The notes under the pieces were generated by a model. That model had not been told where the DNA came from. It made no database searches and was given only the letters and a program-made list of their open reading frames with translations. The position numbers and the translations under genes are program-made. This document shows positions 9,345-14,444 of a stretch of 57,673 nucleotides of DNA, in pieces (the first letter of the stretch is position 1; each line of letters opens with the position of its first letter). Origin of the DNA: Emiliania huxleyi CCMP1516 (Eukaryota); contig NW_005201223.1 in NCBI RefSeq assembly GCF_000372725.1, positions 342,657 to 400,329 on the forward strand, written 5' to 3'.

Positions 9345-10239
9345 AATGGTTGGGTAGTAGGGCTAGAGGGTCGCTCTACACTTAGCCTCTGCAGCGAGCG
9401 AGCGCTCAACTTAGCCCCCGCACGGAGCCGGGCTCAGACTTAGACGCTGGAAGGCCGGGGGCCATGAACTTAGACGACACGAGGCCAACTCCGGGCAAAA
9501 CCCGGGTATACCTGCAAAAGTCCAGGTTTACCCGAAAAATACCTGGACGCGGTCCCGACCAGCGTATGCCGCGCACGACGCCATATCACCGTCTCCCAGG
9601 GCCAGTGCGCTACTTGCGGCGCGCAACGCCTGCTCAAGTACGCGCACCGTACCATGTGCTGCCGCTATGCGTGCCTTAACGCTATGCGTGCCTTAAGGCG
9701 GCTGCGGCGAAGCGGCGGGCGCGGCATGCCGATGGCAGTGCGGACGATGCGGTTGCGATGTGTTCTGCTTCAAGATTGTGGCGGTGCTTGGCATGCACTT
9801 CTGCGATCCCAATCAGCTCATCGCAACGAAGCAGCGCAACAAGCTGGCTGCTGCCAACAAGGCCCTATGCTACCTCACGCGCGGATCGTTCAAAGAGGAC
9901 CAGCATACACAGGCTTCTCTGACATGCGTTTGTTTGAGCTTGAGGCTATTTGTGAGAACTATTTGGCTAGATGTCGCCGAAGTGCGCTCAAGAAGCAGCA
10001 ACGAGAATCGGAAGAGGAGGATGCTGAGGCGGCGATTGCTAAGCATGAGGAGGATCGATCGCCCGCCGCGCAGGCGAAGAAAATTTGGGCGCGAGCGCCG
10101 TATATCGCGTGCCATGGCCGACTTAGCCGGTGTAAGAGGCTCCCGCTGATCTTAGACCGCGTAAGCACTCCAGCGTGGCTAGCCACACTTAGACCCGTTA
10201 AGCCGCGAGGCTCAGAACTTAGACTACTACCCAACCAGT
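9345..10239 (+). mobile_element. non-autonomous hAT-like DNA transposon with a transposase remnant
   Basis: TIR AATGGTTGGGTAGTAG / CTACTACCCAACCAGT (15/16); 8-bp TSD ATTCTTTC at 9337-9344 and 10240-10247; subterminal ACTTAG repeats; internal LIATKQRNKL..ALCYL resembles the hAT dimerisation motif. Confidence 0.85.
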
Positions 10240-10432: not shown

Positions 10433-10527
10433 AGCGCTTTCCCTCGGTCTGTTAAACCTGAGGTCGTGGCCGTTTGGTATTCTCAGCCCCCCGCCGCACT
10501 GGGAGAGGTCGGGCTCCGGCAAGCGCT
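10433..10527 (-). ncRNA. TPP (THI-box) riboswitch-like aptamer in the SDR 3' UTR, variant
   Basis: Minus-strand RNA: P1 AGCGCUU/AAGCGCU; P2 GCCG/CGGC; GAG-CCC...GGG-CUGAGA; ACCUC-A-GGUU-UAACA-GACC-GAGG-GA. Element order matches the TPP aptamer architecture. Confidence 0.75.
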
Positions 10528-10546
10528 GTGCAGCGGCGAGGTGGTC

Positions 10547-11896
10547 TCAGGGCATCGTCAGCCCGCCATCGACCGACAGGCTCTGCCCGGTCACCGCGTT
10601 CGACGCGTCCGAGGCGAAGAAGACGCACGCCTGTGTGTGTGTGTGTGGCAGCGCCGCCTGCTTGAGTGTCGACGTCTGTGCTACTCCCTCTTCGACGCGC
10701 CGCCGTTCAGCGGTGGTCCGGCTGTTCCTCCCCTCGATCTACTTCTGTCAGTGGGCAGGTGATTGGGAGGCAGGCCGGCGGCGTGCCACCCACCGCGATC
10801 GAAAGGCGAGTGTCGTCTCCGGGTGCTCTCAGTCGGCGGCCGATTGCGCGTCGTGCAAATCGACGCGTTGGACCGTGCGTACATCTACCTGCACGCCTCG
10901 GCAAAATCGTTGACCGTCGTCGTCTTGCGCAGTGGCGTGCCGGCGGACACAAAGCCAAACACCTCCTTGGTCGTTAGGGCCGACGCGTCGGTCGTCTCGA
11001 GCAGGCCGCCCGCCACCAGGTTGACGCGCACGCCGGACGGCCCCAGCTCCGCGGCGAGGTTGCGCGTGAGGCCGACGAGCGCCGCCTGCGGGAAGGCTCA
11101 AGGAAGTGTCTGGGCAAGGGGCTGGGTGGTGCGCGTGAGGCCGACGAGCGCCGCCTTCGCCGCGGTGTAGTCGTAGTACGTGACGACAGGGTTGTACACC
11201 TGCGGCGTGAACTCACCAATGTCAGGGTGTGAATACGGTGTCGTGCAGCATCGCGTGCATACACCGGCTACAACTAGAATTGAGAATACAGTTGATTGCG
11301 TGTCCTCTCTAGTGCTCGCCGGGACACACGGATCTGTATAACCATCTAGGGCTGTCGACGAGGTTGGAGCCGATGTTGACCACCTTCCCGAACTTGGACG
11401 CCTCAAACGAGGGCAGCGCTGCCTGCACCATGTTGACGGCGCCGGCGAGCGTACCTCTCATCTGCTGCTCCAGGTCCTCTGTCGACACCGTCTTAATGCT
11501 CGCCATGGATGAGCCCGGGTCGAACTTGTAGCGGGGCAGCGCATTGTTGACAACGACGCTGACCTTCCTGCCAAAGTGCGTCTCGGCATCAGCGACCAGC
11601 TTCACCATGTCCTCCTTGACCGTCACGTCGCCCTGCGCGGCGAGGGCGCGCGACGGCCACGCGGCGTTGATCTCGGCGGCGACGGCTTCGCCCTTCTCCT
11701 TGCTGCTGAAGTAGTTCACCACAACAAACGCTCCCTCACGGGCGTACACCCGTGCGAGCTCGGCTCCAACGCCACGCGATGCGCCAGTGATGACGGCGAG
11801 CTTTCCCGCCAGCTGGCCGACGGCCAGAGAGGAGGAGTCGGCGCACTCCTCCTTTGCGAGTGCGGCGAGCAGGCTGCAGCAGAGCAGGAAGGGCAT
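10547..11896 (-). CDS. classical SDR, 3-oxoacyl-ACP reductase paralog (PRK08642/OarX-like), 4 exons, possible signal peptide
   Basis: TGASRGVG, VVNNA, NIGSNL/VYNPVVTYYDYTAAK/AALVGLTRNLAAELGPSGVRVNLVAGGLLETTDAS...TPLRK/ACVFFAS..VTGQSLSVDGG. Confidence 0.9.
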
Positions 11897-11988: not shown

Positions 11989-12753
11989 CAACACAAAACA
12001 ATCTAACCGGCCAAACCGGCCAACGCGCCGGTCGTGCACGGCGACAAGGAGAAACCAGAGCTCACCCGGCAGTACAACGAGGGGTACAAGGTCGACCTCG
12101 CGGAACCCCACGCTGGCCCGGGAGGATGCGATGAGGTGAATGAAGTCAAGCTCTGGACGCCCCTCCTCAAGACCTCCTCGGCGGGCGTTGGTAACGCCTC
12201 GAGCGGCGGCACGCCCGCCTCCGTTGGCCACTCCTACGCCTTCGGCAACACCGAAGAGAAGGCCCGCCGCCTAAACATGGGCTGCAAGGCGCGCGGGCAG
12301 CCCGGCCAACCCTTCTCCCACAAGACCGGCCACGGCTACGTCAAGGCGCATCGCGGTTTCTACCACGACGCGATCTTTGTCAAGCGCAACAACTTCAACC
12401 TGCTGCTCCACGAGACGTTCGGCGGCGGCTTCTCGCCCACCGCCGTTCTCAAGCTGCGCCGCCTCGCGCGCAAAGTCGCGCGCGGCAGCGTCGACCGCAC
12501 GGCCTACTCGCCCAAGTACTCGCTCTCTTTTATGTCCCACCATGCAGAGCGCATCTCTCTCTCTGTTGTGCGAGGCGTGAACCGCGCCATTCGCTCTCAC
12601 CTGGCAACCCTGTCTGCACGTCTCGCGCGCGCGTGAACAGCCCCCCCCCCCCCGCAAACTTTAAACCTCCATAAACATCATTTTGCAGGGGCTCCAGGCC
12701 CCAAATGACGTGTGAGTGTTAGATTTGTTTGGTATTGCTAAAAATCTCTCTCT
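11989..12753 (+). mobile_element. 5'-truncated CRE-like non-LTR retrotransposon (restriction-like endonuclease C-terminus and 3' UTR)
   Basis: ORF ending at 12636 with VDL..EVK, HETFGG and RISLSVVRGVN motifs; (TC)n tail; 9-bp TSD CGGTTGGTA at 11980-11988 and 12754-12762. Confidence 0.75.
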
Positions 12754-12923
12754 CGGTTGGTATAGCTTTTGGGATACGAGCGGCATTGCTTGAAAAAGAA
12801 TTTTACAAAACTCCCTCCTAACTGGGCTTTACTGGCGTGTCACTTGAAAAAGAAACAATGCAAGCCCACGCGCCGCTCCTGCTCTCGCCTCCGGTTGCGG
12901 ACTGCAAAGCGCGCCTCTAGTGC

Positions 12924-14444
12924 ATGTCGGGCAGGCGCCCAGATCCCCTGCTGCGAGAGTCTCCGCCGGGGCCGCGGACACGCTTCCCGGCTCCGGCCGC
13001 CCTCTTCGGCGCGCCGGCCATCCTGCCCCCGCGGCACGGATCCAGCGGCGACTCTGCTTTCCTGTCCATCGTCCTGGAGGAGTTTGATCGCAACGCCTTT
13101 GAGATCGCGCTCCTTCCTCACGTCGCCCTCGCCTGCAAGAGGGCGCTCGCATGCACGTGCTATGCGCTACGCGAGCGCCTCACCCCGCACTTGCGTGCCG
13201 CGACGCTCTCTGTCCTGCGGGACGACGCCGTCTGGAGCAACGCCCTCTTTGTGGCCAGGCTGCCCGGTCTGTCGGACCTGCGGGTTGAGGGCGAGACGAG
13301 TCTGCCCTCGATGGATCTGGCGCGGTACAGGCGGCTGGAGGCGCTGAAAGTCGGCGCCCTCAGCACGCCCGCGGCCCTCTTCTTTGGCGCCGCCATCGCC
13401 GCATCCAACGCACGGCTGCGGCTCTCTGATGGCAACGCGATTCGTAACATTGCAGCACTGCGATCGAGCCCAAGCCCCGACAAGGCAGAGCCAAACGCGT
13501 CGGACGCCGACCGCGCCGCGTTGCTCGGCGCGTTGGCTTCAAACCAGCACGAGATCTTCAGCGCCCTCGACGCGCTATCGTACGCGAGCGGGGCGCTCGG
13601 ACACGACAGGGAGGTGGTGCGAGCTGCGGTCCGGGAGGATGGCACGGCGCTCGAATACGCATCTAGCGAGCTGAGGGCGGACAAGTCCATCGTGATGGAC
13701 GCGGTGCGGACCGGCGCGACCGGCGCCTGGCCCGGCGCGTGGTTGGGCCTCGCCAGCGAGGCGCTCCGCGGGGACAGCGAGGTTGTGCTCGCGGCGGGCA
13801 CACGGTACGTAGCGCGGGCATTGTCGTATGCGACCGACGCCGTCAAGGAGGACCGGGCCGTCGTGCTCGTGGCTGTCCGCATGGATGGAATGGCGCTGCG
13901 CTATGCGGCGGGCAGCATCAAGGGGGACAGGGAGGTGGTGCTCGAAGCGGTGCGACAGTCGGGACAGGCGCTGCAGTACGCGACAGGCTCCCTCAGGGCG
14001 GACAGGGCTGTCGCGTTCGAGGCGGTGCGGCAAGACGGGGACGCACTGAGATGGGCGGGGGCGGTCATCAAGGCGGACAAGGACGTCGCTCTGGCGGCGG
14101 TGAGGAAGGAAGGGCGGACCCTGGAGTTTGTGGCGGAAGCCCTGCAGGCAGACAGGGAGGTGGTGCTTGCGGCGGTGGATCAGGCCCAGGCTCGAGCCCA
14201 GGCAACCTTTCGTTCCACCCTCGCCCTCATTGCCAGGGCCGGGGCAACAGGGACAGTCCTGTCAGCCTCCGCCACCCTGAGGGCGCACTTGCGGCAGGTC
14301 CTGCTGTACGCGCGCGATCGTCTCTTCGAGGACGATGCGTTTGTGCTCGCGGCGCACGAGCATGCCAAGGCGATCTGGACCACGCCTGCAAACGATTTGC
14401 AAGACATGCGCGAGCGTCTGCGCCTCCTCAAGGAACTGGTGTGA
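12924..14444 (+). CDS. DUF4116 repeat-containing protein
   Basis: Intronless 506-aa ORF with about 7 repeats of DREVVLxAVRxxGxALxYAxxxLRAD. Confidence 0.85.
   Translation: MSGRRPDPLLRESPPGPRTRFPAPAALFGAPAILPPRHGSSGDSAFLSIVLEEFDRNAFEIALLPHVALACKRALACTCYALRERLTPHLRAATLSVLRDDAVWSNALFVARLPGLSDLRVEGETSLPSMDLARYRRLEALKVGALSTPAALFFGAAIAASNARLRLSDGNAIRNIAALRSSPSPDKAEPNASDADRAALLGALASNQHEIFSALDALSYASGALGHDREVVRAAVREDGTALEYASSELRADKSIVMDAVRTGATGAWPGAWLGLASEALRGDSEVVLAAGTRYVARALSYATDAVKEDRAVVLVAVRMDGMALRYAAGSIKGDREVVLEAVRQSGQALQYATGSLRADRAVAFEAVRQDGDALRWAGAVIKADKDVALAAVRKEGRTLEFVAEALQADREVVLAAVDQAQARAQATFRSTLALIARAGATGTVLSASATLRAHLRQVLLYARDRLFEDDAFVLAAHEHAKAIWTTPANDLQDMRERLRLLKELV

Follow-up and report, generated by a model that had tools for sequence, protein, structure and literature searches.

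The window analysed here is a stretch of 57,673 nucleotides from Emiliania huxleyi CCMP1516 (contig NW_005201223.1, positions 342,657 to 400,329 of the forward strand; positions below are those of the window), which carries on its minus strand an oarX gene of four exons. Coding exon 1 (11360..11896), which includes a hydrophobic N-terminal extension, is identical to EMIHUDRAFT_68908 of E. huxleyi (P0001). Exon 2 (11155..11199) follows after a 160-nt GT-AG intron and exon 3 (10897..11085) after a 69-nt GC-AG intron, each of these two introns being skipped in 4/4 sequencing runs, which come from four studies and are guessed to be RNA. Intron 3 (10631..10896; 266 nt, GC-AG) is often retained and is followed by exon 4, which extends to the TGA (10547..10630). 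The spliced four-exon product is a 284-aa SDR, and when intron 3 is retained, a stop lies three codons in and the C-terminal end is lost. Intron 3 was retained in contigs of runs X1 to X5; in X5, a 52-nt contig of the spliced intron 3 junction was recovered alongside the retained form (depth 42 versus 34). Some database proteins likewise terminate within introns 1 and 2, so intron 3 is not peculiar in being retained. Introns 2 (11154-11086) and 3 (10896-10631) open with a copy of the start of the next exon (about 27 and 6 nt, respectively) and look as if they were formed by tandem duplication.

Just past the 3' UTR lies an 891-bp element (9347-10237) with perfect 14-bp terminal inverted repeats and repeated subterminal motifs, whose ends are high-copy in sequencing runs and which looks like a non-autonomous DNA transposon. 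Directly upstream of oarX, a high-copy repeat with a reading-frame remnant was found (12016-12600), and the plus strand carries a 507-aa open frame with tandem repeats of about 25 residues (12921-14444).

P0001 passed the curated cut-off of NF006393/PRK08642 (293.5 versus 292 bits), P0008 scored 318.9 bits, and by this profile the E. huxleyi gene is classed as a true OarX. Bacterial members of NF006393, which are 47-51% identical to P0008 and likewise pass the cut-off, sit in thiM-thiE-thiD-oarX or oarX-monooxygenase operons, a context that agrees with the description of OarX in PMC11223231, where the protein is treated as a candidate for B1 salvage. A TPP riboswitch was present at 3/4 of the bacterial plasmid oarX loci viewed. 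No relatives of the protein were found in the PDB at E 1e-30. Many algal OarX proteins (window 11896-11810, minus strand; P0012-P0047) have an N-terminal extension resembling a signal peptide or an organelle-targeting sequence, which is missing from bacterial OarX; other algal OarX begin at the SDR core.

In the 3' UTR, 19 nt past the oarX TGA (10549-10547), the minus strand holds a 95-nt TPP-family aptamer with a remodelled P4/P5 arm (10433..10527), assigned from its fold elements, from Rfam and from a model of OarX-locus aptamers. The 5' strand of P1 (10521..10527) pairs with 10439-10433 by 7/7 Watson-Crick pairs, and that of P2 (GCCG, 10517..10520) with CGGC at 10472-10469, the same P2 being present in the algal orthologue L001. 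P3 (10486..10514) is founded on GCCC/GGGC (10514-10511 with 10489-10486) and includes a 21-nt extension, which appeared only as '..' in the string given with the original prediction; its fourth pair is C-G in the window, U-A in L001 and G-C in a copy from run X9. The CUGAGA pyrimidine pocket (10486-10481) and the variable J3/2 together occupy 10473..10486, and the UGAGA equivalent to U39-A43 (10485-10481) is kept in other copies. The P4/P5 arm (10442..10463) is composed of P4 (CCUC/GAGG, with the usual CCU/AGG), a bulged A at 10459, P5 (GGUU/GACC) and a UAACA loop, and is separated from the 3' strand of P1 by GA (10441-10440). Every pair of P1, P2, P3 and the three-way junction is Watson-Crick and fits the orthologue model described below (R1), and the UAA of loop 5 and its receptor pairs in P3 are present. 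Re-reading of the window sequence returned the letters, coordinates and helices of the original prediction, which had placed a TPP-like aptamer about 20 nt past the stop codon of an SDR gene; with the covariance models matching and OarX confirmed, 10527-10433 (minus strand) is a genuine member of the TPP aptamer family with one defining feature missing, G60 and the open pocket that goes with it. Transcript-like contigs from the four runs that skip introns 1 and 2, which show neither transcript ends nor levels, traverse the aptamer. One from X1, a run guessed to be RNA, extends from 11973 to 10431 and so passes 10433; contigs of X11 covered coding sequence only.

The Rfam search that had been proposed as a check bore out the assignment in part: TPP was the only family matched at the site up to E 10 (RF00059, 10423-10530, minus strand; 22.1 bits, E 0.048), but the score falls below the gathering score of 54.3 bits, a level that no Rfam match reached within the window. 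Several canonical aptamers of algal orthologues likewise fall under this cut-off, at 36-54 bits. A second covariance model, R1, was built from 13 aptamers at other oarX loci with E. huxleyi left out, and gave a single strong match in the 57,673 bases, at the aptamer (25.4 bits, E about 4e-5 by a rough calibration; the runner-up among 10 listed matches scored 9.5 bits). R1 aligns P1 to P4 and skips the arm, where 20 model positions face 16 letters. Across its 13 sequences the named structure is paired in 89% of cells, and 15/19 pairs show changes on both sides. BLASTN with the L001 aptamer matched the window at 10524-10469 (E 3e-5), and an nhmmer sequence-only profile of 11 orthologue aptamers did not find the site. 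The folding energy is unremarkable (z -0.84), which counts against the element, and P2 and P3 are absent from the free minimum-energy fold. Two further CTGAGA motifs, at 10832 (intron 3) and 10550 (stop codon), had no R1 match.

In a metagenome scan, 80/95 oarX loci were kept and 23 were treated as algal (L001-L019, L025, L034, L078 and L079), leaving 19 after removal of duplicates. The algal loci cluster with named algal proteins in the tree (support 100/100; L013, L034, L078 and L079 are outside the tree). A TPP-family aptamer was found at 13/19 distinct loci, in the 5' or the 3' position. At 12 it is of the canonical type, being 5' at L005, L008, L009 (where it is cut), L015, L017 and L018 and 3' at L001, L007, L010, L011, L013 and L025; the thirteenth locus is E. 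huxleyi itself (L078/L079), where the aptamer letters of both environmental contigs are identical to the window. No aptamer was found in the available DNA of the remaining 6/19, among them L003, several of these loci having short 5' ends. L001 groups with E. huxleyi and L003 (support 100/93), and its aptamer matches the window over P1-P3 (79% over 57 columns) and has a canonical arm; the aptamer is therefore ancestral at oarX, with the arm altered on the E. huxleyi line. A stretch of L003 (2405-2455) that loosely resembles the closed arm was considered as an aptamer remnant and set aside (p 0.17, not significant). Along the algal OarX tree the aptamer has changed sides between the 5' and the 3' UTR on more than one occasion, and upstream of the oarX of L025 lies an RNase MRP-like match (2234-2448; 31.9 bits, E 2e-5).

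What sets the E. huxleyi aptamer apart is its arm. The G60 position is C (10460), and G follows CCU in 12/12 other algal OarX aptamers and is invariant at this position in 13/13 aligned relatives. From CCU to AGG the arm measures 16 nt in the window, as against 19-21 nt in 14/14 other aptamers measured. In crystal structures of TPP riboswitches U62 and U79 are flipped out, and these two positions have apparently been lost. By folding prediction the closed arm forms at -9.3 to -9.5 kcal/mol and the open forms at -1.7 to -2.5, so that open registers cost about 7 kcal/mol relative to the closed one; the CG preceding AGG (equivalent to C77 and G78) is predicted to be paired. The pyrophosphate arm is thus without G60 and, by prediction, closed up, with the pyrimidine half intact, in line with the original prediction that J4/5 is altered and can collapse to a single bulged A. 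Another odd arm was seen at L007 (1105-1155), which keeps G60 and then has a longer J4/5 without A at 61. Scans with closed-arm patterns returned 2 viral contigs and 6 GTDB genomes; all 8 were taken as chance matches, as none scores as TPP and the 6 from GTDB lie in or across long reading frames. No true match to the arm was therefore found in the GTDB or viral scans, whose patterns were narrow, so that bacterial variants of the arm may have been passed over.

Contigs from other E. huxleyi loci converge on the aptamer, and since they were assembled from graphs they may be chimeric across the shared stretch. In one copy, found on a 1.7-kb contig (X3 record 17 and, at the same coordinates, X5 record 5), one letter differs over 10480-10527 and the shared arm follows. 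The loose end of this contig is a reading frame ending in TTA-stop, as does the frame of the SSSP protein R1CU91 of Emiliania, which ends in VTTA (PMC11452348, supplementary file 3), and by this resemblance the copy is likely the aptamer of the SSSP transporter mRNA noted in 2014 as being without a P5 pair (McRose et al. 2014, PMC4260697). Another copy (X2, X4 and X5) has six differences, of which the variable J3/2 holds four and distal P3 a fifth, the sixth being unplaced; their clustering outside the 36-nt core (p about 0.07, calculated by hand) is weak alone, as the four J3/2 changes may be one event. A contig of X9, probably DNA, shares 10445-10474 exactly, beyond which J3/2 is longer, CUGAGA is present and P3 is short, with a compensated fourth pair (G-C); only 30 letters upstream are visible. 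As the X9 copy may be another strain's form of the SSSP copy, the contexts are counted as three or four, and the arm is unchanged across them. Among the data examined, the arm variant was seen in this one species.

A 10-nt stretch just after the stop codon (10533..10542, minus strand), common to the oarX and SSSP copies and seemingly absent from the third copy, whose loose end is mixed, could form a competing helix with the 3' strand of P3. With this candidate helix, the free fold is favoured by 4.8 kcal/mol over that of the aptamer, a borderline result by shuffling, the duplex being matched by 42/1000 shuffles and the energy gap by 146/500. Control of intron 3 splicing through pairing with the aptamer was also considered and rejected: 0/15 segment-by-region duplexes beat shuffles (best fraction 0.15), and no pairing of the aptamer to splice sites was found.

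Compared with the TPP riboswitches of RF00059 (E. coli thiM, plant and algal THIC), the window aptamer has the same P1-P5 layout, CUGAGA, P3 base, CCU/AGG P4, GA before P1, AA in loop 5 and link to a B1 gene, and differs in the change of G60 to C, an arm of 16 rather than about 20 nt, one missing P5 step and a score of 22 versus 54. Nearest to it is the SSSP riboswitch of E. huxleyi, a near-identical copy for which McRose et al. (PMC4260697) note the missing P5 pair and a bacterial-like L5. SSSP is the only novel riboswitch gene that paper names for E. huxleyi; its main text covers eight gene types, with neither an SDR nor oarX among them, and proposes no change of ligand there. The arm is thus probably already in print through the SSSP aptamer, and the oarX copy may be in Table S2 of the same paper. 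In bacteria, P4-P5 variants of the TPP riboswitch (McCown et al. 2017, PMC5473149) likewise keep the pyrimidine half intact while the pyrophosphate core is altered; they were compared with the window arm by their description only, and eukaryotic aptamers are said in that account to fit the consensus. By analogy, the window aptamer probably works like these low-discrimination variants. Bacterial oarX genes with a TPP riboswitch on the 5' side (Oliveira-Filho et al. 2024, PMC11223231) share the protein family NF006393 and the riboswitch link, whereas the E. huxleyi gene is eukaryotic and intron-bearing and has its aptamer in the 3' UTR; that study covers 87 bacterial genomes, and neither 'eukaryot' nor 'alga' occurs in its text as available. 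The HMP-PP (thiS motif) riboswitch, which also senses a pyrimidine compound of B1, belongs to a class of its own that sits within a bacterial terminator (PMC7266159); its fold finds no support at the E. huxleyi site, where TPP is the sole Rfam match up to E 10. A full-text literature search, covering few subscription papers, did not turn up any publication describing an oarX riboswitch in algae or a low-discrimination variant in eukaryotes.

In known structures U39-A43 contact the pyrimidine, the metal and pyrophosphate are held by G60, A61, C77 and G78, and P3 is the docking site of loop 5 (PMC3764141; bioRxiv 2025.01.21.634073), A70 docking on C22-G37 (PMC3764141). The reading favoured here, at a little under an even chance and based on the modelled arm, is of a working aptamer that has lost phosphate discrimination and that would lower oarX expression post-transcriptionally in cells with a large B1 pool. 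C60 would pair with G78 and close the Mg-pyrophosphate site, the loop-5 adenines would still dock on P3, and B1 compounds would be bound through the pyrimidine ring alone, such that thiamin, TMP and TPP would be read about equally and HMP or AmMP might be bound as well. The output step is a guess: it may be mRNA stability or 3'-end handling beside the stop codon, possibly through the 10542-10533 helix. Affinity would be expected to drop to micromolar values, a level that would suit a cell with thiamin stores. For scale, the E. huxleyi cell was taken as 5 μm. The species stores thiamin in luxury, and its quotas of 1.6e-7 to 1.2e-6 pmol per cell (PMC5635689) come to about 2-18 μM in a cell of that size, a range that a micromolar sensor would span. 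In the canonical riboswitch the affinity for thiamine is about a thousandfold below that for TPP, and a thiamine-derived fragment binds at 3.7 μM (bioRxiv 2025.01.21.634073). Because the arm is predicted to be shut and the same arm stands on other transcripts, the element is likely a gauge of total vitamin B1 and not of the active cofactor alone. A wider proposal, that the B1 regulon of E. huxleyi (oarX, SSSP and one or two more) has been rewired to unphosphorylated thiamin or HMP-type precursors with the pyrophosphate unread, is advanced tentatively.

The favoured reading draws on the constancy of the arm in three or four contexts, on the five located differences of the third copy, all of which fall in J3/2 and distal P3, on the X9 copy, in which CUGAGA with a compensated P3 pair and the arm are preserved to either side of a J3/2 that has diverged, and on the bacterial P4-P5 variants, which sense thiamin like TMP and TPP (unpublished work cited in PMC5473149). 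Against it stand the restriction of the variant to one species while 12/12 other algal OarX aptamers keep G60, the possibility that the shorter arm breaks L5-P3 docking, and the finding that a single pocket change such as A61U can abolish the thiamine response in cells (bioRxiv 2025.01.21.634073). The 6/19 algal loci without an aptamer in the available DNA, including L003, one of the two closest, also weigh against it, and well-conserved 3' UTR aptamers of diatoms gave no response in vivo to thiamine or HMP (PMC9544697). Several of these points would suit an inert or ligand-independent relic, the pyrophosphate site having been lost in a single event and the damaged version then carried to several B1 genes by duplication or gene conversion: the confinement to one species, the unresponsive diatom aptamers and the close relative L003, where no more than a remnant-like stretch is present (p 0.17). 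Being one letter apart over 10480-10527, the oarX and SSSP copies indicate recent copying from gene to gene, which could spread even a dead arm and weakens the argument from arm identity. Against a relic stand the perfect 7-bp P1 and the new, fully paired P5, the identity over the aptamer of the environmental contigs L078 and L079, and the X9 copy with its two separate islands (CUGAGA with the compensated P3 pair, and the arm) to either side of a J3/2 that has diverged; this explanation is considered rather improbable.

An aptamer that is still selective for TPP, its pocket reopening on binding and holding the pyrophosphate at lower affinity, is considered unlikely. In an alternative register (C60, A61, a short P5, loop UUAACA, C77, G78), A, C and G stand at places fitting 61, 77 and 78, so that the pocket could reopen on binding, and McRose et al. 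(PMC4260697) took the SSSP aptamer, one P5 pair short and with a bacterial-like L5, as a TPP riboswitch; yet G60, invariant in 13/13 relatives, binds the metal (PMC3764141; bioRxiv 2025.01.21.634073), and the open registers are the costlier by about 7 kcal/mol. A sensor specific for precursors (HMP, AmMP or FAMP) that excludes TPP, as the original prediction suggested, is very improbable: the closed arm leaves the pyrimidine pocket alone, at low supply HMP and AmMP support better growth of E. huxleyi than thiamin does (PMC5635689) and SSSP, which bears the same arm, is a putative HMP/thiamin transporter, but no feature was seen that would keep out the thiazole or the phosphates, the arm is canonical in presumed haptophyte relatives that share the auxotrophy, and the known HMP-PP riboswitch is of another class, with its aptamer inside a terminator (PMC7266159). 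HMP synthase is missing in 30/30 haptophytes studied (PMC5635689), and dependence on HMP across the haptophytes had been offered as the explanation of the variant; this link is unsupported, because L001, the closest relative with an aptamer, is canonical, as are L011 and L025, all three being presumed haptophytes and keeping G60-A61. A narrow HMP sensor is less likely than a loss of phosphate discrimination.

Algal oarX is a gene type beyond the eight of McRose et al. 2014 and extends the question of OarX function to algae. All characterised eukaryotic riboswitches respond to TPP (PMC9544697), and the E. huxleyi aptamer, if the favoured reading is true, would be a eukaryotic one with changed specificity. 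This natural variant and its canonical close relative in L001 make a clean pair for comparing binding, and a loss of phosphate discrimination, if true, would show how a major bloom-former gauges its B1 supply.
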